Virus record (IMG/VR): IMGVR_UViG_3300045988_005581
Origin: a virus
Taxonomy: Duplodnaviria; Heunggongvirae; Uroviricota; Caudoviricetes
DNA length: 44,370 bases
Reading direction: 5' to 3' (one strand)
Positions 1-44,370 of this stretch are shown one piece after another. Below the pieces are notes generated by a model. It was not told the origin of the DNA. It was given only the letters and a program-made list of their open reading frames with translations, and ran no database searches. The position numbers were made by a program, and so were the translations under genes. Position 1 is the first letter of the stretch, and each line of letters begins with the position of its first letter.

Positions 1-119
1 ATTTTTTTTATCTATTTTCTGTGATGACTAGTTGACTATTATCCTCGACCCTATTATATTTACTTCATCGACAACGAGAACGGAGTAGAGAGAAATGGGC
101 AACGTATCGACGATAGAAA
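1..119. repeat. Terminal duplication (copy 1), identical to 44252..44370
   Basis: Bases 1..119 match 44252..44370 exactly by eye; the junction lies in the T-run of the terminator at 44231..44260. Implies a unit length of 44,251 bp; the repeat touches both window edges so its true extent is unknown. Confidence 0.9.
32..60 (+). promoter_or_regulatory. sigma70-like promoter TTGACT-N17-TATATT
   Basis: TTGACT at 32-37, 17-bp spacer, TATATT at 55-60; about 35 nt upstream of the first ORF (ATG 95). Confidence 0.5.
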
Positions 120-5683: not shown

Positions 5684-5704
5684 AGCCCCGAAAGGGGCTT
5701 TCTT
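5684..5704 (+). terminator. terminator-like hairpin between portal and head-morphogenesis genes
   Basis: AGCCCC-GAAA-GGGGCT then TTCTT; probably partial or stabilising. Confidence 0.4.
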
Positions 5705-5709
5705 ATAGT

Positions 5710-6786
5710 ATGCTATTAACTTTAGCGCCACAGGGTTTATCTATGAGCTTACTTACATCCCTAATCAGCCATCAGATATGGCTGCAACGCACCGCATCCG
5801 GTGAAGTGAAAGACCTCACGCCGTTCATTCAGGAGATAAGGGATGAAATCAAACGGCAGGTGCTGTTATTCGGTGACGACGGTCGCAGCACTGCGCGACT
5901 GAATAAACTGTTACGCGACCTGGAAGAAGCACTAACCGGTATTACGGGTGACTGGCAAACAAAGCTAACAGACGACCTTAAGGAACTGGCGGCGTACGAG
6001 GCTGAGTGGAACGTAAAGACACTGACCGCCAACGTAGACGCGGAATTTGTTACGCCTACCGCTGAGCAGGTATGGGCCGCTGCCGAGTTTCAACCATTAT
6101 CATTGAGCGACAAGCCCGTTGATTTCACCAAGCTGATGTCTGGATGGGGCGAAACGGAAGTAGCACGTCTTGTAACTGGAGTTAAGATGGGCTTTGTGCA
6201 AGGTCAAACCACACGGCAGATTGTTAAGAATGTTGTTGGCGCTGGTGGACTAGCCGACATCTCAGAACGTAACGCGACTACGGTAATCCGCACCGCGCTG
6301 TCCCACGTATCCAACGAGGCCCGTAACGAGACGTACCGCCAGAACGACGACATCATCGAGAAATATGAGTGGGTGTCAACTTTGGACAGCCGTACCAGCA
6401 CGATTTGCAGGGCCAGAGACGGAATGACGTGGGAAATCGGTAAAGGTCCGATGCCACCAGCCCATCCTAATTGCCGAAGTACCACTGCACCGGTAATCAG
6501 TTCAGAGTTCGACTTCCTTGATAAAGGCGCAAAACGTGCGGCTAAGGGTGCGTACGGCGGTACTCAGGTAAGCGCAGACACCACCTATTACGAGTTCCTG
6601 AAACAACAACCAGCATGGTTTCAGGACCAGGCGATCGGTCCTGTTCGTGGTAAGATTTTCCGTAACAGCGGTATATCGCCGGAAGAGTTTCGCGTAAAAT
6701 CTGTAGATGGTTTCGGGAATCCGCTTACGCTTAAGCAGATGGCGGAACTCGATAAACGTGTTGCTGATTATCTGAAAGGGGATTAA
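5710..6786 (+). CDS. head morphogenesis protein (Mu F / SPP1 gp7-like)
   Basis: Contains TLDSRTSTICRARDGMTWE, matching the conserved D-x-R-T...C...DG signature of Mu F-like minor head proteins as I recall it; sits after the portal gene. Start could be 5710 or 5740. Confidence 0.8.
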   Translation: MLLTLAPQGLSMSLLTSLISHQIWLQRTASGEVKDLTPFIQEIRDEIKRQVLLFGDDGRSTARLNKLLRDLEEALTGITGDWQTKLTDDLKELAAYEAEWNVKTLTANVDAEFVTPTAEQVWAAAEFQPLSLSDKPVDFTKLMSGWGETEVARLVTGVKMGFVQGQTTRQIVKNVVGAGGLADISERNATTVIRTALSHVSNEARNETYRQNDDIIEKYEWVSTLDSRTSTICRARDGMTWEIGKGPMPPAHPNCRSTTAPVISSEFDFLDKGAKRAAKGAYGGTQVSADTTYYEFLKQQPAWFQDQAIGPVRGKIFRNSGISPEEFRVKSVDGFGNPLTLKQMAELDKRVADYLKGD

Positions 6787-7251: not shown

Positions 7252-7278
7252 AGGCCCCATTAAGGGGCCTTAGTTTTC
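7252..7278. terminator. bidirectional intrinsic terminator
   Basis: AGGCCCC (7252-7258) / GGGGCCT (7264-7270) with 5-nt loop; T-runs on both strands. Lies between convergent genes. Confidence 0.65.
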
Positions 7279-7480
7279 AACGGAATCTTGTGTTTAAATC
7301 CTGCTCGTGGACGACCCTCAGAACAGTGTCATAATCCCCGTATCTTCCAGGTTCAAATACATCTAATGCCTTGTAAGCAGACATTGCGTCAGGGAAAACC
7401 TGCAGAACCTTTTTAACACGGCACAAGTCACCGTCGAACTCTTCATCGAACTCTTGAACTACTTCGCAAATTGCATACAT
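7277..7480 (-). CDS. hypothetical acidic protein (67 aa), solitary antisense gene
   Basis: ATG at 7480 (minus) preceded by GGGGGTG RBS and a sigma70-like promoter; terminated by the bidirectional terminator. Confidence 0.5.
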   Translation of the reverse strand: MYAICEVVQEFDEEFDGDLCRVKKVLQVFPDAMSAYKALDVFEPGRYGDYDTVLRVVHEQDLNTRFR

Positions 7481-7507
7481 TTTTCACCCCCTGCTTAAGT
7501 TAACTGA

Positions 7508-7536
7508 ATAGTACCCTATTATATTGGGGTGTGCAA
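7508..7536 (-). promoter_or_regulatory. sigma70-like promoter TTGCAC-N17-TACTAT (minus strand) with embedded dyad
   Basis: On the minus strand: TTGCAC (7531-7536), 17 bp, TACTAT (7508-7513); dyad AATAG-N4-CTATT at 7507-7520. About 25 bp upstream of the ATG at 7480. Confidence 0.5.
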
Positions 7537-7602
7537 ACTATTTATTTACTTATTCCAGTTATTCCGCTCAATTGTAAATGTTGGAATAAACTATTCGAAT
7601 AG

Positions 7603-7631
7603 TTGACTTTTCACTAAAAATATGATAAGCT
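7603..7631 (+). promoter_or_regulatory. promoter P_A: TTGACT-N17-TGnTAAGCT (extended -10)
   Basis: TTGACT 7603-7608, 17-bp spacer, TG 7623-7624, TAAGCT 7626-7631. Identical core promoter at 39890..39918. Preceded by the perfect palindrome ACTATTCGAATAGT (7590-7603). Confidence 0.6.
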
Positions 7632-7637
7632 CCACCT

Positions 7638-7838
7638 GAGCTTGTGAAGTATGAACAAGCGACCGCGGCGCGGGCAGGTAACGGAGCGGGACGTAAGTCC
7701 TGAGTGTAGTTACGCTGACGCGTTCGGAAGGGCCATACTCTATTGCTTGTGTAAAAAGTAACAGGTTTACTTAGATTACGCCGTTTCTATGTTTAAATGA
7801 TAAGGACTAGCGCCCTGCTTTAAGGCAGGGCTTTACTT
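7638..7838 (+). ncRNA. candidate short terminated transcript / structured leader (element A)
   Basis: Region between P_A and the terminator at 7812..7838; shares a 43-nt identical 5' arm (7626-7668) and a 23-nt identical 3' arm (7723-7745) with element B at 39913-40032. Not shown to be transcribed. Confidence 0.35.
7812..7838 (+). terminator. intrinsic terminator 18 nt upstream of the spanin start
   Basis: GCCCTGC (7812-7818) / GCAGGGC (7825-7831), loop TTTAAG, then TTTACTT. Confidence 0.6.
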
Positions 7839-7855
7839 ATCGAGAAAGGGGAAAC

Positions 7856-8242
7856 ATGAATCTTAAAGCAACCGTCGTAGCAGGAGCATGTTTCATCATC
7901 CTGGCTTACACACACGGCATTTATCAGTACCGCAGCGGCTGGCACGAAGGCCGCGCTAATCTCGTTTCGCAGCAACAGCAGAAAGCACAGGCCGAGTTAG
8001 CGAAGAAAACACAACGGCAGCAGCAAGATGAATCAAAGGCCGCCGCCGCTGACAACGAAGGCAAGACGAAATCAGAGGTGATCACCCGTGAAGTCGTTAA
8101 GTACATTAAAACTCCTGGTCGCAGCGTGTGCACTTTCGACCCTGAGCGCGTGCAGCTCAAGTCCCGCGCCGTCGCAAACGCCAATTCCATCCCCGGATAC
8201 GACGATGATGCAGCCGCCGTGCAAGCTGGCACCGCCGAGTAG
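7856..8242 (+). CDS. i-spanin (Rz-like inner-membrane spanin)
   Basis: N-terminal TM segment (VVAGACFIILAY), charged Gln/Ala/Lys-rich coiled-coil-like middle region, and an out-of-frame lipoprotein ORF overlapping its 3' half. Confidence 0.7.
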   Translation: MNLKATVVAGACFIILAYTHGIYQYRSGWHEGRANLVSQQQQKAQAELAKKTQRQQQDESKAAAADNEGKTKSEVITREVVKYIKTPGRSVCTFDPERVQLKSRAVANANSIPGYDDDAAAVQAGTAE

Positions 8243-8351
8243 CGACGCTGACGAGGATTTAGCTATCGACGTTCAGAACGCTGAATGCGTACGGCAGCTG
8301 CGGCTGAAAGTGTTCATGTTGCAGGATTACGTGAGGAATATTCTGGAATAG
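8088..8351 (+). CDS. o-spanin (Rz1-like outer-membrane lipoprotein), overlapped architecture
   Basis: GTG start at 8088 with GAGGTGA RBS; signal peptide plus lipobox LSAC; proline-rich mature region; +1-frame overlap with the i-spanin extending beyond its stop. Confidence 0.75.
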   Translation: MKSLSTLKLLVAACALSTLSACSSSPAPSQTPIPSPDTTMMQPPCKLAPPSSDADEDLAIDVQNAECVRQLRLKVFMLQDYVRNILE

Positions 8352-8433
8352 TTGCCTTGCATGTTGGAATAATTTATTCTTGACATGTAAATCCGGGTGG
8401 CCCGGGTTCCAACGTCCAGGGGACATACTGACT

Positions 8434-9138
8434 ATGAATCGTTTTTTACGTTATCCGTTCCAGGAAGAAGCTGGGGCAGAAGATAAAGCTGGTGGCGGTG
8501 ACGCGCCGAAAATGTTCACCGCTGAAGAAGTTCAGGCGCTGATTGAGAAAGAAGTTGCCGGGCTTAAGGCTAATCAGGAAGCATTGTTGGCGGAGAAGAA
8601 AGAAGCCGCTCGCAAAGCAAAAGAGGCCGAAGAAGAACGGCAGCGCGCGCACCAGGAGGCGTTAAAAGCCGCTGGTAAGATGGATGAGTTCGAAAAGACG
8701 ATTCGTAGCCAGTATGACCCGGTGTTAGCCGAGAAAGACGGTCGCATCTCCAGAATGGCAGAGCGTATCCTCGGCAGCGAACGTAAAGCGGTGCTAGGCT
8801 CTTTCGCGGGTGACTTTATTACCCCAGAAGCAGTGGACATTCTTGCGCCGTTCGTTAAGACTGAGTTCGAAGGCGATGATGTGGTTACTAAGTTTGTTGG
8901 CGCAGACGGCAACGTAATCACGACTGACCCGGAACAGTTCCGCAAATACTTGCGAGAACACAAAGCGTTTTCACATTTGATTAAAGCAAATGCAGCTTCC
9001 GGCGGCGGGGCTTCCGGTAGCAAAGGCGGCGGGGCCGCACCAGCGTTTAAAGACATGAGTGAAGCGGAGCGTATCGCTCTGTACGAATCGAACCCTGCCG
9101 AATTTGAACGGCAACTTAAAGCCCTGAGGAAAAAATAA
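8434..9138 (+). CDS. scaffolding protein (putative)
   Basis: ATG 8434 (tool start 8380 is TTG); Glu/Ala/Lys-rich predicted coiled coil; immediately upstream of the major capsid gene. Confidence 0.6.
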   Translation: MNRFLRYPFQEEAGAEDKAGGGDAPKMFTAEEVQALIEKEVAGLKANQEALLAEKKEAARKAKEAEEERQRAHQEALKAAGKMDEFEKTIRSQYDPVLAEKDGRISRMAERILGSERKAVLGSFAGDFITPEAVDILAPFVKTEFEGDDVVTKFVGADGNVITTDPEQFRKYLREHKAFSHLIKANAASGGGASGSKGGGAAPAFKDMSEAERIALYESNPAEFERQLKALRKK

Positions 9139-10187
9139 TGGCAATTACTACTATCGGCGACATCGTAACTGGTAAAGAATCGGTAATCCTGTCCTACATG
9201 ACAGAGGACCCGGTAGAGAAAACCGCGTTCTTCCAGTCCGGTATCCTTACCTCGACTCCGTATGCCGCCGCTATCGCAAACGGCCCGTCCAACAAAGCGG
9301 TCCTGCCGTACTGGAAAGCTATTGATACCTCTATCGAGCCGAACTACTCGAACGACGTATATCAGGACGTCGCCACCCCGCGTAACGTGCAAACCGGTGA
9401 GATGGATGTTCGCGTAGCTTACCTGAACGAAGGTTTTGGTCAGGCTGACCTGACGGTAGAACTGACCAGCCAGAATCCGCTGCAATCCGTGGCTTCCCGT
9501 CTGGATAACTTCTGGCAGCGTCAGGCACAACGCCGTCTTATTGCTACCGCGCTCGGTCTGTACAATGATAACGTAGCGGCTACCGATGCGTACCACGAGC
9601 AGAACGACATGGTTATTGACGTGTCCGCTACTCTGGGCTTCGACTCCGGCGCGTTCATCGATGCTACCCAGACTATGGGCGATGCGCTGATGGGTAACGG
9701 TGGTGAAGTGCTTGGCGCTATCGCGATGCACAGCTTCGTTTATGCGCAGGCGCGTAAGCAGCAGCTTATCGACTTCATTCGCGACGCTGACAACAACACC
9801 ATGTTCGCCACCTACCAGGGCTATCGTGTGATTGTTGACGACAGCATGACCGTAGTCGGAACTGGCAACAGCCGTAAGTTCATCTCCATCATCTTCGGCA
9901 ACGGTGCTATCGGTTACGGCGAAGGTTCTCCGTCAAACCCGCTGGAATACGAGCGCGAAGCGTCTCGCGGTAACGGTGGTGGTGTCGAAACCCTGTGGAC
10001 CCGTAAGACCTGGTTGCTGCATCCGTTTGGTTACAGTTTCACCAGCACTGTAATCACCGGCAACGGCACCGAGACTATCGCCCGCTCTGCTTCCTGGCAG
10101 GACCTGGCGAACGCTTCCAACTGGAACCGTGTGGTTGACCGTAAGCATGTACCGATTGCCTTCCTGGTAACTGGTGTCGGGGCTTAA
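9138..10187 (+). CDS. major capsid protein
   Basis: 349 aa, strong RBS GAGGA, follows scaffold and is followed by a strong intrinsic terminator (typical for highly expressed capsid genes). Assignment by synteny and size. Confidence 0.8.
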   Translation: MAITTIGDIVTGKESVILSYMTEDPVEKTAFFQSGILTSTPYAAAIANGPSNKAVLPYWKAIDTSIEPNYSNDVYQDVATPRNVQTGEMDVRVAYLNEGFGQADLTVELTSQNPLQSVASRLDNFWQRQAQRRLIATALGLYNDNVAATDAYHEQNDMVIDVSATLGFDSGAFIDATQTMGDALMGNGGEVLGAIAMHSFVYAQARKQQLIDFIRDADNNTMFATYQGYRVIVDDSMTVVGTGNSRKFISIIFGNGAIGYGEGSPSNPLEYEREASRGNGGGVETLWTRKTWLLHPFGYSFTSTVITGNGTETIARSASWQDLANASNWNRVVDRKHVPIAFLVTGVGA

Positions 10188-10203
10188 GGTTAAGATATAA
10201 TCG

Positions 10204-10230
10204 AGAGGGACTTCGGTCCCTCTTTTCATT
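10204..10230 (+). terminator. intrinsic terminator after the capsid gene
   Basis: AGAGGGA (10204-10210) / TCCCTCT (10217-10223), loop CTTCGG, then TTTTCATT. Confidence 0.6.
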
Positions 10231-10246
10231 TACTAAGAGGTAAATT

Positions 10247-10546
10247 ATGGCTAAGACCGGAAAAGGCTTGCCTCGCAGCCTTCAGAATGTCGACTTCGGC
10301 GACTTTGACATCCCAGTAACGCCGGCTACTACCAGCGTAGTTGGTGGGGTTAAAAAGTCAGCTACTGTAGCCGCCCCCGCGGCCATTACCGCTGCCGCCG
10401 GGTCGCAGTCCGCTGCGGACCCGACTAAGACCGAGTTCGATGCCCTTGTAGCCGAGTACAACAAACTTCGAACTGATGTAACCACGCTGCGCACTACCGT
10501 AGCAAATCTGTTGACTGCGCTTAAAAATGCAGGAACTGTAAGCTAA
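10247..10546 (+). CDS. hypothetical Ala/Thr-rich protein (99 aa; possible head decoration/fibre)
   Basis: RBS AAGAGGT; low-complexity Ala/Thr-rich centre and C-terminal coiled-coil-like segment. Confidence 0.5.
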   Translation: MAKTGKGLPRSLQNVDFGDFDIPVTPATTSVVGGVKKSATVAAPAAITAAAGSQSAADPTKTEFDALVAEYNKLRTDVTTLRTTVANLLTALKNAGTVS

Positions 10547-10558
10547 AGGAGCTTAAAA

Positions 10559-10909
10559 ATGGTTGATGTAATCAAACGTCGTATTACTGGTGTTTCTGAT
10601 GATTCTCCTGCCGATGGTCAGGTTGAAATCGATATGGCGAATATCTCGCCCGCATCTTTTTCTACCGCACTTGCCGCTACCACTACCAAGTCTACGGGGC
10701 AGACGATGACTCTTACCGTAGCCGTAACTGGCGGTCTGGCCCCGTACACATACCAGTGGTACAAAGATAACAACGCTATCCCAGGCGCTACCGCCGCCAC
10801 CTACGAGAAAACTTCGCTCGCTACTACCGATTCCGGTACGTATAAAGTGGTTGTCCACGATGTATATGGTAATATTATCTCCAGCAGCACCGTAGCAACT
10901 GTATCTTAA
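10559..10909 (+). CDS. Ig-like domain protein (116 aa)
   Basis: YTYQWYKDNNAIPGA...GTYKVVVHDVYGN resembles Ig-like domains; paralogous motif to 6786..7247. Confidence 0.6.
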   Translation: MVDVIKRRITGVSDDSPADGQVEIDMANISPASFSTALAATTTKSTGQTMTLTVAVTGGLAPYTYQWYKDNNAIPGATAATYEKTSLATTDSGTYKVVVHDVYGNIISSSTVATVS

Positions 10910-10945
10910 TACCGCAGCCCTTCGGGGCCGTAATAAGGAAAGGTC

Positions 10946-11125
10946 ATGGCAGATAATTATGTAATCCGCGAAAAGTACACCCACGTTGATGTTGTTGACG
11001 GTCAGGTTATGCCCGTTCGCGGTGTTGTAGAAGCGGATGAACTGGTAGCGGTTCAACCGGACAACGAAGAAGCGCACAACAACGGCGGTGGCACTAAGCG
11101 TCGCCGCCGTAAGTCAGAGGAATAA
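10946..11125 (+). CDS. hypothetical small protein (59 aa) with basic C-terminus
   Basis: ATG 10946, stop 11123-11125; not in ORF track (<60 aa); C-terminal KRRRRK. Confidence 0.4.
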   Translation: MADNYVIREKYTHVDVVDGQVMPVRGVVEADELVAVQPDNEEAHNNGGGTKRRRRKSEE

Positions 11126-11128
11126 TTT

Positions 11129-11641
11129 ATGCCGCTAATCGTGGAAACTGGGGCAATCGTCCCGAATGCCGACAGTTACGTTAGTCTGGCTGACGCCCGC
11201 GCGTTAGCGGCTAATTATGGCCTGGAGCTACCGGAAGACGATACTGCCACCGAAGTAGCCTTGCGCAACGGCGCTACTTATGTCGGGCTTGCAGAACCGC
11301 AGATGTGCGGCCGCCGTGTGTCCGCCGAGCAGTCCCTGGCGTACCCACGTACGGGAACAACACTAAACGGCTTCACCGTAGCTGATAATGTTATCCCACC
11401 GCAGTTAATCCGGGCGCAGGTAATCGCCGCTGTTACGTATGGAGCGGGCACTGATGTTCGGGCTAACTCCGATGGACGTTCCGTGCAGACCGAGCGTGTA
11501 GAGGGTGCGGTAACAGTGACCTACTTCAACAATGGCAACAGTGGCGCTACGACCGCGATTACCGCTGCTGACGACGCTTTACGCCCGTTATTGTGTGGCG
11601 GTCTTAACAATGGTTTCTCGTTTAACGTGTACCGGGGTTAA
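11129..11641 (+). CDS. head-tail connector / head completion protein (putative)
   Basis: 170 aa with RBS GAGGAA; assigned only by position between capsid and tail genes. Confidence 0.5.
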   Translation: MPLIVETGAIVPNADSYVSLADARALAANYGLELPEDDTATEVALRNGATYVGLAEPQMCGRRVSAEQSLAYPRTGTTLNGFTVADNVIPPQLIRAQVIAAVTYGAGTDVRANSDGRSVQTERVEGAVTVTYFNNGNSGATTAITAADDALRPLLCGGLNNGFSFNVYRG

Positions 11642-11643
11642 AA

Positions 11644-12258
11644 ATGGCGAAGACTAAATCAGAGATATTCACGCTAATCGGTTCCGAGCTACCGGACAAC
11701 ACGACCGGACTTATTACGCCTGCGAAGTTGCGCGGGGTATTAACCCAGATGGCTGACTCACCTATTTACGCCACTCCGGGTGTTAAAGAGGTTGAAGTTC
11801 TACGCGCTGCGTCGACAGTAGCGCAAGCGCCTACCGCAGTAGATACGGCGTTGCAGGTATCGTTCGGCTCTGCTCAGGGTAGTGCATCTGACCCGGTAAT
11901 GATTAATGCTGCGGGGCTGGTTACATTCAACACCGCGGGTAACTATGCCGTTCGCATCAAGTTACAGGCCGGTCGCTCCGGCGCTAGCGGAACGTCTATC
12001 CTGTTGTCGCGTATCCTCATTAACGGCGCTCAGTACGGCTCACCAGCAGCTACGAAACTTGTTAGCTCGGAAACCACCATCCCTATTGAATCCCGTGTAG
12101 TGATTAACCCAACCGCCGGGCAAACATTCGCCGTTCAGATTATGCGAGATAGCGCCGGGACTAACTTCGGAGGCGTATACCCGCAGGTGGCTACTGTAAC
12201 TGCATGGGGCACGGCACCGTCCGCGCTACTGGTTATTTCGAGACTGGAGGCTGCCTGA
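11644..12258 (+). CDS. structural protein (putative head-tail joining)
   Basis: 204 aa, tightly packed in the head-to-tail block; no motif identified. Confidence 0.5.
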   Translation: MAKTKSEIFTLIGSELPDNTTGLITPAKLRGVLTQMADSPIYATPGVKEVEVLRAASTVAQAPTAVDTALQVSFGSAQGSASDPVMINAAGLVTFNTAGNYAVRIKLQAGRSGASGTSILLSRILINGAQYGSPAATKLVSSETTIPIESRVVINPTAGQTFAVQIMRDSAGTNFGGVYPQVATVTAWGTAPSALLVISRLEAA

Positions 12259-12617
12259 TGAGCACTGCTTTCAGTAAACGTATGCAAGGCGTGGGTACAC
12301 GCCTGCTAACCAAATTCGGCAGCACGGTATCTTTGGTTCGCGCTGGCTCGAAAGTGTGGGACGAAGTTCTCGGTGAGTACATCTGGTCCGCCGATGAAGT
12401 TCTGCCGTTGAAAGCCGTGCCTGTTCCGGTTAACGCAGGTTTGGTTAACGGCACAACCATTCAGGCCGGAGACATGATTGTCAAAGCCGATTGCAGCGTC
12501 GTTCCGAAGATGGAGGACAAGGTGCAATTCGGCGGCGAGCAATGGTCCGTCGTAGCCATTGAGAAGAAGGTGGTTAACGATGATGTTGTGGCCTACTTTA
12601 TTCAGGTGAGAAAATGA
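12258..12617 (+). CDS. head-tail joining protein (putative)
   Basis: ATG 12258 overlapping the upstream stop (TGATG); tool start 12204 is upstream in the same frame. Confidence 0.55.
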   Translation: MSTAFSKRMQGVGTRLLTKFGSTVSLVRAGSKVWDEVLGEYIWSADEVLPLKAVPVPVNAGLVNGTTIQAGDMIVKADCSVVPKMEDKVQFGGEQWSVVAIEKKVVNDDVVAYFIQVRK

Positions 12618-13009
12618 GTTTCGCGCTGGACGTCTCTAAGTTCGTGGAAAAGGCGAAGAAGAACCCTGAGAAGGTGATGCGTCAGGTGTCTATCAAGCTG
12701 TTTTCCGCTATTATAAAGGCGAGTCCGGTAGATACTGGTCGGTTTCGCATGAACTGGATGGCATCTGGCGGTACTCCTGCTTCCGGGATTACGGATGCTA
12801 CGGATAAATCAGGAAACACAGCAACCGGAAACGCTACAAGTTTCGTGCTGAAAGCCACCGACTGGCATGAGTTCACGCTGACAAATAACCTGCCGTATGC
12901 ACAACGGCTGGAGTATGGCTGGTCGCAACAGGCCCCGCAAGGATTCGTCAGGACTAACGTGTCCCGCTTCCAGCAACTCATTAACGAAGAAGCTAGCAAG
13001 GTGAGATGA
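12614..13009 (+). CDS. neck / tail completion protein (putative)
   Basis: 131 aa, ATGA-coupled to neighbours; assignment by synteny only. Confidence 0.5.
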   Translation: MSFALDVSKFVEKAKKNPEKVMRQVSIKLFSAIIKASPVDTGRFRMNWMASGGTPASGITDATDKSGNTATGNATSFVLKATDWHEFTLTNNLPYAQRLEYGWSQQAPQGFVRTNVSRFQQLINEEASKVR

Positions 13010-13422
13010 TGGGCTACTTTGAGGACTTAACAAAAGCGTTTGATGTGCCGCTGGTAGCCTTCGGAACCACCAACGGAATCAAGGTAGCGCTTGAAAACAT
13101 CGACGCGCCGACGTCAACAGATACGCCGTATCTGGCAAGTTACATGTTGCTGGCGGATACCGAGCAGGCTGACTTATTCTTCACGGAACAACGCGCCGGT
13201 GTCTATCAGATAGACATTAACTACGCATCGGTGAAAGGTAGCGCGCCAATCAATAAAATGGCAGACTTACTTAACACGGCGTTTAAATCAGGTAAGGCAT
13301 TTTCGCGTAACGACATCTGCGCCGAGGTTCAATCGGTTAGCCTGGGGCCGCTGATTGTAGAAAACGGATGGGCCAAACGACCATTGTCAATTAACTTTAT
13401 TGCATTCACCAAGAGGCTGTGA
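13006..13422 (+). CDS. tail terminator protein (putative)
   Basis: 138 aa directly upstream of the major tail protein gene; assignment by synteny. Confidence 0.5.
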   Translation: MMGYFEDLTKAFDVPLVAFGTTNGIKVALENIDAPTSTDTPYLASYMLLADTEQADLFFTEQRAGVYQIDINYASVKGSAPINKMADLLNTAFKSGKAFSRNDICAEVQSVSLGPLIVENGWAKRPLSINFIAFTKRL

Positions 13423-13424
13423 AT

Positions 13425-14591
13425 ATGGCTACAACTCCTTTTAAGGGCGCGAATACCGCGCAATTCTATGTGGCGGAAACTACCCCTGGCGTAACACCGA
13501 CTAACCCGGTATGGTCGCCGTTGCGTAACACGGGCGGCGTTCCCGCTGTAACCCGCGATGCACTGACTTCCAACGAACTGGACGGCAGCCGTGAAACTAC
13601 ATCCATCCGAACCGGTAACAAGCAGGTTAGCGGGGAGTATGCCATCGAACTTAGCTCTCGTAGCCAGGATGATTTCCTTGCGGGAGCGATGACTTCTACG
13701 TGGCAAGCTGGGGTAGAGATTACTGGCGCCGAAATTACGGTCGCCCCAGCAGGTAAAACATTCACCCGCGCTGCTGGTAGCTTCATTACTGGCGGTGTAG
13801 AAGTTGGCGACCTTATTGCGTTCACCGACTTAACCGGCGACAACGCAAAACCGTTTATCGTGACCGCGGTTTCCGCTCTGGTAGTTACGGGCGCAGGTAT
13901 TCAGCACACGCTGACAGCAGAGACAGTAACCACTGACGCAAAAACTGGCGACAAGCTGGAAACCGGTAACGCGTGTAAGACGTTCTCCATCCTGACGTGG
14001 TTCAAGGGCCAGTGTGGTAACCCGGACGCGTACATGCTGACCAAAGGTGTGGAAATCTCTGGCTTTACCGTAGAGCAGGCGGTTAACGCCATGGTCACCG
14101 GCAGCTTCCCGTTCATCGGCCTTAGTCAGGAGATTCTTACCGCGCCGCCGTCTGGCTCTGATTTCTCTCAGGTTACGTTCACCGATGAGCCGTTCTCGTC
14201 GGTAGATGTGTCGGTGTTCGATGGCTCCACGCCGTTGCGTTGCGATACTCTCACCATCACCAACGACAACGGAGCTTCCGCGCAGTTCGAACTCGGTAAC
14301 AGTAGCGTGGCGTTCGTCGAACGTGGACGCGCAGCTAACACATTCTCTATCTCTGGCAAGCTGTACGACATGGCGATGATTCAGAAGTTTATCAACGAGC
14401 AGCAGGTAGAGATTAACTCTATTCTGGCAGGGGTAAACGGGGCTATGTCTTTCAGTTTGAAACGTGCAGAGCTTACGGCGGTTACACCTGAGATTGGTGG
14501 GCCTGAGTCAATCACTCAGTCCATTGAAGGCCAGGCTACCGGCAATCGGTACCAGTCGTCTATCGTAATTCAACGTATCACCTACGCATAA
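13425..14591 (+). CDS. major tail (tube) protein
   Basis: ATG 13425 with AAGAGG RBS (tool start 13419 is GTG); about 388 aa, Thr/Gly/Ser-rich; followed by a strong terminator and precedes the chaperone/tape-measure genes. Confidence 0.7.
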   Translation: MATTPFKGANTAQFYVAETTPGVTPTNPVWSPLRNTGGVPAVTRDALTSNELDGSRETTSIRTGNKQVSGEYAIELSSRSQDDFLAGAMTSTWQAGVEITGAEITVAPAGKTFTRAAGSFITGGVEVGDLIAFTDLTGDNAKPFIVTAVSALVVTGAGIQHTLTAETVTTDAKTGDKLETGNACKTFSILTWFKGQCGNPDAYMLTKGVEISGFTVEQAVNAMVTGSFPFIGLSQEILTAPPSGSDFSQVTFTDEPFSSVDVSVFDGSTPLRCDTLTITNDNGASAQFELGNSSVAFVERGRAANTFSISGKLYDMAMIQKFINEQQVEINSILAGVNGAMSFSLKRAELTAVTPEIGGPESITQSIEGQATGNRYQSSIVIQRITYA

Positions 14592-33505: not shown

Positions 33506-33534
33506 ACTATAATAGCTAACTATTCAGGTGTCAA
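33506..33534 (-). promoter_or_regulatory. sigma70-like promoter TTGACA-N17-TATAGT (minus strand) with embedded dyad
   Basis: On the minus strand: TTGACA = 33529-33534, TATAGT = 33506-33511; dyad AATAG-N4-CTATT 33511-33524. Confidence 0.55.
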
Positions 33535-34961: not shown

Positions 34962-35218
34962 TATTTAGCCTCCTCCGGTAGTTCTGGTAAATACATCCAG
35001 TGTGTTATACCCATCTCGATATACCGTTTCGTATATAACTGATTTCCGTTTTCATCCAGCCCAGCAGTAATGTCGTCGAAATAGTCCTGTATATGCACAA
35101 AATCAATTCCGCCTTCCGGGAACCCATTATCGTCACATTTACTTCCGTCTACTGAGCAAACTAAAACAGAATCATCTTTTGACTCTGGTAGTGCTTCGTT
35201 TACGCTAACCCAATTCAT
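34961..35218 (-). CDS. DUF551-like protein
   Basis: C-terminal ITHWMYLPELPEE, matching the conserved THWMPLPEPP-type DUF551 end; paralogue at 40990..41175. Confidence 0.6.
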   Translation of the reverse strand: MNWVSVNEALPESKDDSVLVCSVDGSKCDDNGFPEGGIDFVHIQDYFDDITAGLDENGNQLYTKRYIEMGITHWMYLPELPEEAK

Positions 35219-35487
35219 ACCCTGTTATCCCACTGGTCAATTAAATGTCGTGTCTTATGGTCGCAGTGCATGGCCCACCCATACATCGACTCGAAGACAT
35301 AAAAGTCAGGCTTGGCGAAAGTTGTGCGCTTAATCTGTGACACGTGACGGCCTATATCTTTAGGCCGTGGTACTTTTCCTAAGTACGCCATCTCTTCCAT
35401 CTGGTGCGCACCGGACGGAGCACGCAATAGCCATAGCGCCTCTGTGTTATCCCGCCTGTCGACGGCTCGGTAGAGTTGGTAAATCAT
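35215..35487 (-). CDS. hypothetical protein (90 aa)
   Basis: ORF-track ORF coupled to the downstream gene; no motif recognised. Confidence 0.5.
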   Translation of the reverse strand: MIYQLYRAVDRRDNTEALWLLRAPSGAHQMEEMAYLGKVPRPKDIGRHVSQIKRTTFAKPDFYVFESMYGWAMHCDHKTRHLIDQWDNRV

Positions 35488-36283: not shown

Positions 36284-36311
36284 ATCCGCCCCTCTCGTTT
36301 GGTATGGGCTA

Positions 36312-36340
36312 ACTATAATAGCGAACTATTCACATGTCAA
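36312..36340 (-). promoter_or_regulatory. sigma70-like promoter TTGACA-N17-TATAGT (minus strand) with embedded dyad
   Basis: On the minus strand: TTGACA = 36335-36340, TATAGT = 36312-36317; dyad AATAG-N4-CTATT 36317-36330. A second imperfect dyad AATAT-N4-CTATT lies at 36361-36374. Confidence 0.55.
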
Positions 36341-36404
36341 TGGGCTTTTCTAAAATAATTAATATGGTACTATTCACATATCAACTGACTAAGGAGTAAT
36401 TGAC

Positions 36405-36620
36405 ATGCAACCATCTGAACTAGGTATCCGTGTAGAACAACGCCGTAAAGAACTCGGCATCTCCCAGCGCAGTTTGGCGGCCCTGACCGGCGTTTCCCAG
36501 GGCGTGATTAACCAACTGGCACTTGGAGTAACTCAGGACGTCCGCTCGGCAACGCTGTTCAAACTGGCGGAAGTTCTGGAAGTAGACGCCAAGTGGCTGG
36601 CGTTAGGTGAAGGGGCTTAA
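36405..36620 (+). CDS. Cro/CI-type HTH transcriptional regulator (XRE family)
   Basis: 71 aa with LGISQRSLAALTGVSQGVINQL helix-turn-helix; RBS AAGGAG; the only rightward gene inside the leftward replication module, divergent from it. Confidence 0.75.
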   Translation: MQPSELGIRVEQRRKELGISQRSLAALTGVSQGVINQLALGVTQDVRSATLFKLAEVLEVDAKWLALGEGA

Positions 36621-39390: not shown

Positions 39391-39603
39391 TTACTTAACG
39401 CCCGCAATCCACGCACGCTCCGAAGCGTAGAAACGACACTTACTTAAAGCCTCGATTGGCATCTTAATAATGCGTGTCGGTTCCAACAAATGATTAGGCT
39501 TACATATTTCCGCATAGAATCCGCTGTCAGTAATTTCCGGCGCAAACTTAAACCGGTATTTAACTTTACAGTTTTCAAAGTAACAACCCATACGCCCAAT
39601 CAT
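39391..39603 (-). CDS. hypothetical protein (70 aa)
   Basis: ORF-track ORF, ATGA-coupled to the upstream HTH gene. Confidence 0.5.
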   Translation of the reverse strand: MIGRMGCYFENCKVKYRFKFAPEITDSGFYAEICKPNHLLEPTRIIKMPIEALSKCRFYASERAWIAGVK

Positions 39604-39782
39604 TTCACGTTCTCCTTAATCCATGCTTCAACTTTATTACGGTCAAATGTTCCTGGTAAACGGCGACCCATAACCTTAATACAGCAATCAGGGAATTTAC
39701 CGCTGCGCAACCAGTTATTAATTGTTTGACGTGTCACCCCGATACGTTCAGCCACTTCATTCTGTGTCATGTAATGCTGCAT
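39600..39782 (-). CDS. AlpA-like HTH DNA-binding protein
   Basis: MTQNEVAERIGVTRQTINNWLRSGKFP resembles AlpA/excisionase-type HTH proteins; ATG 39782 with AGGAG RBS (tool start 39854 upstream). First gene of the leftward module. Confidence 0.6.
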   Translation of the reverse strand: MQHYMTQNEVAERIGVTRQTINNWLRSGKFPDCCIKVMGRRLPGTFDRNKVEAWIKENVK

Positions 39783-39813
39783 TTTTATATCTCCTGTTTG
39801 TTTGGTGAAAACG

Positions 39814-39842
39814 AGTATAGGATAGCGTGAATGTAAAAGCAA
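39814..39842 (-). promoter_or_regulatory. candidate promoter TTGCTT-N17-TATACT (minus strand) for the leftward module
   Basis: On the minus strand: TTGCTT = 39837-39842, TATACT = 39814-39819; about 30 nt upstream of ATG 39782. Confidence 0.4.
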
Positions 39843-39889
39843 CCAAAACACCACACAAAGTTACTGATATACAAAAGATGCTAATGGTA

Positions 39890-39918
39890 TTGACTTTTAC
39901 TAAGAAATGTGCTAAGCT
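39890..39918 (+). promoter_or_regulatory. promoter P_B: TTGACT-N17-TGnTAAGCT (extended -10)
   Basis: TTGACT 39890-39895, 17-bp spacer, TG 39910-39911, TAAGCT 39913-39918; same hexamers and spacing as P_A at 7603..7631. Confidence 0.6.
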
Positions 39919-39924
39919 CCACCT

Positions 39925-40160
39925 GAGCTTGTGAAGTATGAACAAGCGACCGCGGTGCGGCAGGAAACGGAGCGGTGCGTCAGCACTGAGTGTAGTGTCG
40001 CTGCCTGCATTCGGAAGGGCCATACTCTATTGTAAATCCCGTCTAAATAACCCAAGTCACTAATAATTAAAAGTTTCTATAGTTGCCGTAAGCAAGGTAG
40101 AGAGTACTTCACTCCGCTGGGGTGGGCTAAAGCCCACCCGCTGCGTTGCGTACTCTTTAA
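39925..40160 (+). ncRNA. candidate short terminated transcript / structured leader (element B)
   Basis: Paralogue of element A: identical 43-nt and 23-nt arms flanking a 54-nt core with about 12 substitutions and one indel; followed by GC hairpin GGTGGGC-TAAA-GCCCACC (40121-40138) and a U-rich stretch. Not shown to be transcribed. Confidence 0.35.
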
Positions 40161-41175: not shown

Positions 41176-41333
41176 TGTTCAATAGTTTGGGATTTTACTG
41201 AGTGACTTACGCTGCTACACAGCAGCGTACAACTTTAACTTAGTGTCGTCAAAAAGCGACACTTCCCTAAAACACTGTTGGTGCTGGAATAAAGTGTCTC
41301 CGATTAGCGACACTAAGCACCAATAAAATTTAC

Positions 41334-44260: not shown

Positions 44261-44370
44261 ATCTATTTTCTGTGATGACTAGTTGACTATTATCCTCGAC
44301 CCTATTATATTTACTTCATCGACAACGAGAACGGAGTAGAGAGAAATGGGCAACGTATCGACGATAGAAA
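44252..44370. repeat. Terminal duplication (copy 2), identical to 1..119
   Basis: Exact repeat of the window start, including the promoter at 32..60 and the first 25 nt of the first ORF. Confidence 0.9.

Follow-up and report, generated by a model that had tools for sequence, protein, structure and literature searches.

Operator half-sites at a structural-gene promoter of a Kagunavirus phage: a putative operator over the -35 hexamer that the twin promoter lacks

The stretch of DNA analyzed here (44,370 nucleotides, referred to as the window) comes from a virulent siphophage of the genus Kagunavirus (Guernseyvirinae) and covers essentially its complete genome; over the 2 kb tested it is 99.9% identical to Escherichia phage vB_EcoS-phiEc3. 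The 119 nucleotides at its start return at its end, an overlap left by assembly of a genome that is circular or circularly permuted. Neither a CI-type repressor nor an integrase or immunity region was found in the window, and Guernseyvirinae genomes contain no gene for an RNA polymerase or a sigma factor. The palindrome that is the subject of this study sits, according to the annotation taken from a close relative, in the intergenic region (7481-7855) that separates a small minus-strand gene (7277-7480) from a plus-strand operon (7856-14591) encoding spanins, the scaffold, the major head protein, connectors, and the major tail protein. The coordinates of the main features are collected in Table 1.

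Table 1. Features of the P_A region and related sites in the window
Feature	Position	Strand	Remarks
Dyad GACTAG-TTGA-CTATTA	24-43		16.1 bits; over the -35 of the putative promoter TTGACT(32)-17-TATATT(55-60)
Strong operator-family dyad CTGAATAG-TACC-CTATTATA	7504-7523		23.6 bits; promoter of the divergent 67-aa gene 7277-7480 (-)
Conserved P_A upstream module, five GAATA/TATTC boxes	7550-7603		Homology with relatives commonly starts at 7550
GAATA-AAC-TATTC inverted repeat, 3-nt spacer	7584-7596		Shares the left arm of the palindrome; recurs at 8367-8379
16-bp perfect palindrome AACTATTC/GAATAGTT	7589-7604		Two outward-facing copies of the operator half-site
Operator-family dyad TCGAATAG-TTGA-CTTTTCAC	7595-7614		Centre 7604.5, over the P_A -35; proposed operator
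P_A -35 hexamer TTGACT	7603-7608	+	Nearly invariant in relatives
P_A extended -10, TGaTAAGCT	7623-7631	+	17-nt spacer; TG and TAAGCT invariant in 48 unique relatives
Structured leader RNA from P_A	7638-7745	+	Paralogue at 39925-40032 (+), after P_B
71-aa HTH_3 (Xre/Cro-type) protein	36405-36620	+	Pfam HTH_3, E = 5e-12; candidate regulator
60-aa HTH_17 excisionase-like protein	39600-39782	divergent from P_B	Profile match
Paralogous promoter P_B, TTGACT-17 nt-TGcTAAGCT	39890-39918	+	Without palindrome and without dyad

P_A is a predicted promoter of the extended -10 type, with a start site probably at about G7638. A simple sigma-70 scan did not call P_A, since its TAAGCT matches only three of six positions. 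Among 48 unique relatives, the TG and TAAGCT elements are invariant and base 7625 between them is free, which is the signature of an extended -10 promoter, and the P_A orthologue was predicted as host promoter HP1 in phage fBC-Eco01 (PMC9825357, Supplementary Table S2). The homology between P_A and the paralogous promoter P_B runs from the -35 onward for about 145 nt, into the structured leader RNA. This leader is about 110 nt long and its P_A and P_B copies are 88% alike; RNAalifold applied to 12 diverse copies revealed eight pairs with compensatory double changes. It matched no Rfam family, and in Jerseyviruses it is present at P_A only. A 36-aa open reading frame annotated within it in relatives (7651-7761) is probably not translated into a protein, because indels shift its frame, and our guess is that the leader RNA could be a cis-acting element of the transcript. 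A conserved G+C-rich hairpin (7812-7831, plus strand) stands roughly 25 nt ahead of the P_A operon's first gene, and in one relative (locus L054) it shows a compensatory change from CCCTGC/GCAGGG to CCCCGC/GCGGGG. With its poor T run, it may act as a weak terminator or contribute to RNA stability. The operon behind P_B begins with small genes of unknown function and also contains lysis, terminase, and portal genes. On the minus strand at 39793-39890, the sequence TTGCTT-17-TATACT stands back to back with P_B; it has no dyad and is likely the leftward early promoter of the HTH_17 gene.

An earlier note on this DNA, made from the sequence alone, described a perfect 14-bp palindrome abutting the -35 hexamer of P_A and overlapping its first base. 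The 14-mer ACTATTCGAATAGT at 7590-7603 is indeed perfectly palindromic and unique in the window, and it adjoins the -35 as described; the symmetry, however, continues for one more base on each side, giving a 16-bp palindrome (AACTATTCGAATAGTT) that reaches position 7604 and thus takes in the first two bases of the -35 hexamer. The same note recognized in it the half-sites of the promoter dyads found elsewhere in the genome, placed in inverted order with zero spacer, and this is borne out by the fact that both arms are the 8-mer AACTATTC. The absence of the palindrome from P_B is likewise confirmed; the homology between the two promoters begins exactly at the -35.

The symmetry by itself is within chance. 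When the window was simulated 200 times with a first-order Markov model, perfect 14-bp palindromes occurred 3.0 times on average, with at least one in 95% of simulations (two are present in the window), and perfect 16-bp palindromes 0.83 times, with at least one in 55% (one is present). Perfect 12-bp palindromes are depleted in the window as a whole (4 observed vs 12 +/- 3.4 expected). What lies beyond chance is the content, as both arms are exact copies of the half-site of the promoter dyads. The 8-mer is found five times in the window vs 1.35 expected, all five copies lie in promoter regions, and two of them are half-sites of the dyads at 33511 and 36317. It is extremely improbable that the palindrome acts as a nucleic-acid hairpin, that is, as a cruciform, an RNA hairpin, or a terminator for upstream transcripts. 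Although the inverted repeat is followed by TTGACTTTTC, which speaks for such a role, its single-stranded DNA fold reaches only -2.4 kcal/mol (z = -1.2; 31 of 200 shuffled sequences do equally well), it contains two G-C pairs in eight and no loop, it was not called by a terminator scan, and it is missing from the J-type cassettes described below.

To assess conservation, 48 unique upstream sequences from IMG/VR, metagenomes, and GenBank were compared; an IMG/VR scan with TTATTCCAGTTATTCC, which among the matches listed returned mostly unrelated AT-rich sequences, was used after filtering. The cassette 7550-7855 shows 93-99% identity across some 180 phage records; about 65 of these are Salmonella phages, in which the genes flanking the cassette are only about 80% identical. 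The perfect 16-mer is intact in 41 of the 48 unique relatives, and the seven variants carry one or two substitutions, none of them compensated. Each column of the palindrome and of the overlapping dyad (7595-7614) varies in at most two unique sequences (n = 48), compared with 7-9 or more at the free cassette positions 7565-7571, 7615, 7616, 7622, and 7625, which argues that the segment is under constraint. The conserved block stops at 7614, the right edge of the dyad, and the adjacent spacer positions 7615 and 7616 vary in 7-9 sequences. Between phages of E. coli and of Salmonella, the promoter-leader cassette as a whole (7481-7855) has about 95% identity, against about 80% for the adjacent genes. 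It has also been swapped as a block between near-isogenic Jerseyviruses (L170, dunkel, 11706-12653), with a right-hand breakpoint inside the leader RNA.

Most Jerseyviruses carry, instead of the cassette found here (K-type), a diverged J-type module of equal length, which keeps the landmarks TTATTCC-AG-TTATTCC, TGTAAAT, and GGAATA but has CTTTATTCAAAAAGT in place of the palindrome and TAGACT in place of the -35, and which retains only three of the seven symmetric pairs of the palindrome. The phages dunkel (K-type) and Ent3 (J-type) are otherwise 91-95% identical, with essentially the same HTH regulators, so the palindrome is not indispensable. That the J-type cassette works in phages almost isogenic to K-type carriers also counts against reading the element as an operator.

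The segment might have no specific binder at all and serve as upstream promoter DNA (through alpha-subunit contacts or DNA shape), or it might merely have spread recently with the cassette, the palindrome being accidental in both cases. A 16-bp palindrome is expected 0.8 times per window, the whole 300-bp cassette moves as a unit with the high identity given above, and the AAAAAG that replaces the right arm in J-type modules resembles, when read against the published consensus, a proximal UP-element subsite. We consider this improbable, as the palindrome columns vary far less than the free positions, both arms are exact operator half-sites, and the directional changes at 7597 and 7612 described below appear to indicate selection. 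The UP-element consensus nnAAAWWTWTTTTnnnAAAnnn is, moreover, poorly matched on inspection, with TGTTGGAATAAACTATTCGAAT at 7579-7600 agreeing at few positions.

The half-sites gain a different meaning when the dyads are considered together. From seven strong dyads in the window we built a symmetrised matrix with the consensus GTGAATAG-N4-CTATTCAC. On scanning the window, the seven training sites scored 20-24 bits, five further sites 16-18 bits, and the rest at most 10.6 bits. Among the five is the dyad at 7595-7614, formed by the right arm of the palindrome and CTTTTCAC, with 15.9-16.1 bits and rank 12 of 44,351 positions; the maximum in random 44-kb sequences had a mean of 12.2 bits and a 95th percentile of 15.7 bits, and the score corresponds to P = 1.65e-6 per random 20-mer, or 0.07 expected per window. 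Its core, GAATAG-TTGA-CTTTTC, has the form GAATAG-N4-CTTTTC, with a spacing identical to that of all seven strong dyads and half-site centres about 10 bp apart, an arrangement which the 14-mer, with zero spacer and outward-facing halves, fails to provide. The centre of the dyad falls inside the predicted -35 hexamer. The left arm has no canonical partner (0.7 bits at 7579), and the J-type cassette, at 7.1 bits under the window matrix and -25 under a Jerseyvirus matrix, contains no such dyad. The dyad is weaker than the training dyads (15.9 vs 20-24 bits), which counts against its reading as an operator, and its two halves are not fully independent evidence, since the right half is partly common to the P_B core promoter.

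These results modify two further claims of the earlier note. The palindrome, which it treated as the functional unit, is real and conserved, but the evidence favours the canonical dyad, which includes only its right arm. Differential control of two late operons is supported in outline, in that P_A has an operator-family site and P_B does not (15.9 vs -14.9 bits in the equivalent register), whereas the term 'late' is not established for both.

A similar layout recurs elsewhere in the genome. The promoter at 32-60 is the strongest sigma-70 match in the first 20 kb, and together with its dyad (24-60, also 44275-44311) it is conserved in Jerseyvirus genomes; the site at 24-43 is thus a second predicted example of a dyad placed over a -35, conserved across genera. 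At 5684-5720 a terminator-like hairpin is immediately followed by the dyad CTTATAG-TATG-CTATTAAC (17.8 bits), whose spacer contains the start codon of a head-morphogenesis gene, and this arrangement is kept in LSPA1.

Further evidence comes from K-type cassettes residing in a Jerseyvirus backbone, where the operator half-site is GTTAATAG, vs GTGAATAG here. In the six distinct phages of this kind, G7597T is present in S102 and dunkel and C7612A in LSPA1, ER10, and L026, while SE479 is unchanged. One or the other substitution is found in 5 of 6 phages with the Jerseyvirus background vs 0 of about 48 with the Kagunavirus background (Fisher p = 2e-6, although only two independent events are involved), and both occur only in Jerseyvirus or other non-Kagunavirus backgrounds, with G7597T fixed in a Salmonella-phage clade. 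Both are G-to-T changes at position 3 of the half-site, toward the resident Jerseyvirus consensus, and both are among only three single substitutions of 60 that give the maximal gain of +5.7 bits under the Jerseyvirus matrix. Positions 7597 and 7612 mirror each other exactly about 7604.5, and not about 7596.5, as an operator centred at 7604.5 predicts and a site centred on the palindrome does not; G7597T destroys the central pair of the palindrome, and C7612A falls outside it. The substitutions that track the background represent two evolutionary events and may include lineage effects. Two observations from the same phages count against the operator reading, namely that even after adaptation the sites score no more than 6.3 bits with the Jerseyvirus matrix and that SE479 keeps the unmodified site.

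The symmetry of these changes bears directly on the possibility that a dimeric protein recognises the 16-bp palindrome as its site, in a class II activator or repressor position at about -41.5, which we regard as unlikely. Its symmetry is perfect over 16 bp, it is intact in most relatives with no column varying in more than two, its centre (7596.5) would lie at -41.5 if transcription starts at 7638, as predicted, and the putative scaffold promoter has a similar outward-facing ATATTC-TG-GAATAG directly before its -35. Yet all seven variants break the symmetry, none restoring it by compensation; palindrome-breaking variants such as G7597T in Salmonella phages are fixed in whole clades; the J-type cassette keeps three of seven symmetric pairs; the background-tracking substitutions are symmetric about the other centre; and in Cornellvirus VSiP the repeat that precedes GGAATAGTTGCCT is direct rather than inverted. 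In addition, the centres of the outward-facing hexamers are 6 bp apart, and established knowledge of 434 Cro-operator complexes indicates that a Cro-like dimer could not bind them in the same manner. Like the class II sites of CRP and FNR at -41.5, the palindrome is a dyad of 16 bp reaching into the upstream edge of the -35, with its centre at about -41.5 from the predicted start. The CRP consensus is TGTGA-N6-TCACA and that of FNR is TTGAT-N4-ATCAA, and on inspection AACTATTCGAATAGTT matches neither. Class II promoters typically have a poor -35, whereas P_A combines a near-consensus -35 (TTGACT, 5 of 6) with an extended -10, and the symmetry is not maintained in relatives.

The arms also belong to a wider array of boxes in the upstream module, comprising TTATTCC at 7550 and 7559, GGAATAA at 7583, and the two palindrome arms. 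Only two 60-bp intervals in the genome contain five such boxes, 7551-7610 and 8336-8395 (0.145 boxes expected per interval); both precede structural genes and have the 12-mer ATGTTGGAATAA in common. Four of the five boxes are retained in the J-type cassette, and the GAATA-N3-TATTC repeat is conserved in K-type and J-type cassettes alike. The second cluster, 8336-8395, precedes the scaffold gene and contains the putative promoter TTGCCT(8352)-17-TATTCT(8375). It also shares GAATAGTTG(A/C)CT with P_A, its GGAATAGTTGCCTT and GGAATAATTTATTC are conserved even in Cornellvirus VSiP, and it is followed by the conserved hairpin CCGGGTGGCCCGG.

The two arms could accordingly be two of five array boxes bound by another factor, either the HTH_17 protein or a host protein, which would boost or time P_A and the scaffold promoter. 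In favour of this reading, boxes as dense as these are found elsewhere only before the scaffold gene, and four of five are kept in the J-type along with the GAATA-N3-TATTC spacing; the conservation of the HTH_17 protein (82% between genera and identical in dunkel and Ent3) also fits cassettes that can be exchanged between these phages. It nevertheless appears decidedly unlikely. The HTH_17 protein has no known binding motif, the orientations and spacings of the boxes are irregular, and the symmetric background-linked changes at 7597 and 7612 are not predicted by it. Moreover, the boxes are operator half-sites, and array and operator may share one reader protein.

Two DNA-binding proteins are recognisable in the genome, the HTH_3 and HTH_17 proteins. 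The HTH_3 protein belongs to PHROGs families of transcriptional regulators or repressors and matches 434 Cro over its full length, as well as the DNA-binding domain of the 434 repressor (E ~1e-4). Two dyads, 36314-36333 and 36358-36377, lie upstream of its gene. Both are situated in the region 36284-36404, between this Cro-like gene (plus strand) and a divergent minus-strand gene, and the region looks like an autoregulated divergent promoter pair. The HTH_3 protein is 48-49% identical to its Jerseyvirus counterparts, with a changed recognition helix, and this divergence fits the change in the half-site. It is the best candidate, and the protein that binds the dyads is likely this 434-Cro-like product of 36405-36620. 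Between Kagunavirus and Jerseyvirus the HTH_17 protein, in turn, shows 82% conservation, and dunkel and Ent3 have identical copies.

Several other candidates were considered and rejected. The presence of the palindrome is not tied to a variant of either HTH protein, as the variants in dunkel and Ent3 are 98-100% identical. A 90-aa protein (35215-35487) that tracked the palindrome in a comparison of the window, dunkel, and Ent3 was dismissed because SE2 has both this protein and a J-type promoter (L116). The annotation of the HTH_17 protein as 'excisionase/AlpA-like' and an Rfam int-alpA RNA prompted the idea of a loading site for an AlpA/Q-like antiterminator. In Pseudomonas aeruginosa, the AlpA element is located between the promoter's -35 and -10, and the HTH residues that make contact are 128-142 (PMC7969949, PMC9371919), numbering which makes AlpA much longer than 60 aa. 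The idea was rejected, since the palindrome lies upstream of the -35 and the protein has only 60 aa. The int-alpA match itself (RF02996, 17109-17173, plus strand, 36.6 bits vs a gathering score of 35.8) sits in the leader of the tail operon, after an extended -10-like TGtTAGAAT, and a similar sequence seems to be present on the minus strand near 41250-41330. Comparison by eye with the consensus sequences of host regulators (CRP, FNR, Fis, IHF, ArgR, DeoR, the LacI family, CpxR, PhoP, and RcsB) revealed no convincing match.

Based on sequence comparison, we propose that the element is a composite of half-sites, the right arm of which, together with CTTTTCAC, would form an operator of P_A for a Cro-like protein, with P_B being spared; we rate this reading as having slightly better than an even chance. 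The palindrome would consist of two abutting and oppositely oriented 8-bp copies of the half-site, of which the right arm (GAATAGTT, 7597-7604) would pair with CTTTTCAC four bases downstream to give the canonical operator. This operator would be bound by a dimer of a Cro-like HTH protein, for which the product of 36405-36620 is the most likely candidate, and binding would compete with sigma region 4 for the -35, so that P_A would be turned down or tuned. P_B, which shares the core promoter, would be unaffected, as it has no left half-site. The left arm AACTATTC would then be an extra half-site in the conserved upstream GAATA/TATTC cluster. The spacing of about 10 bp between half-site centres fits a 434-Cro-like dimer by analogy, and repression is the direction of effect that we infer from the position of the site. 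Two further points count against this proposal: the left arm is conserved as strictly as the right, which the model does not account for, and the rationale for repressing a structural-gene promoter with a protein of the early promoters is not obvious.

The proposed operator resembles the lambdoid Cro/CI operators (434 OR/OL, lambda OR, P22) in several respects. In both cases, short inverted repeats with half-sites about one helical turn apart recur many times, and every copy lies over the -35, the spacer, or the -10 of a sigma-70 promoter. A small HTH_3 protein, here with a full-length match to 434 Cro, is encoded beside what are (here putatively) its own operators, and operator variants follow the specificity of the resident repressor, here in two events. 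In contrast, the phage studied here is virulent, its at least 12 sites are scattered over the genome without a tripartite OR/OL, its half-site GTGAATAG is unrelated to the 434 or lambda sites, and an extra outward-facing half-site creates a zero-spacer palindrome, for which we know of no counterpart in lambdoid systems. As with phi29 p4 and lambda CI at PR/PRM, regulators that each repress early promoters and activate late ones, one recognition sequence occurs both in early core promoters and upstream of a structural-gene promoter; here, however, nothing points to activation, and the site with the best support at P_A covers the -35, where binding would repress. The box arrays of P2 Cox and 186 Apl likewise comprise several short AT-rich boxes about 9-10 bp apart beside a promoter, and an HTH_17 excisionase-like protein is encoded in this genome as well. 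Unlike those arrays, the boxes here are of mixed orientation and irregular spacing and are identical to the dyad half-sites, and nothing ties them to the HTH_17 protein.

Taken together, the element is best described as a set of operator half-sites at a promoter, with the putative operator proper straddling the -35 and providing P_A with a control input that is absent at P_B. The kind of element is ordinary and well known, and this instance is newly described. The literature on transcriptome and promoter studies of Guernseyvirinae yielded in-silico predictions only, and published genome papers list the dyads merely as 'phage promoters' from a repeat finder. They can now be read as forming a regulon of 12 or more operator sites, probably governed by a Cro-like protein, into which P_A would be wired and its twin P_B would not. 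We also considered that one Cro-like protein might act through two geometries, inward-facing pairs repressing early promoters and outward-facing or clustered copies activating or protecting the structural promoters (P_A at -41.5 and the scaffold promoter). This is a speculative and rather improbable extension; if true, a single regulator would drive the early-to-late switch of Guernseyvirinae. Phages of this subfamily (Kagunavirus, Jerseyvirus) rank among those isolated most frequently for use in therapy and food safety, and the symmetric adaptation of the site after transfer between genera would represent a natural experiment on the co-evolution of operator and repressor.
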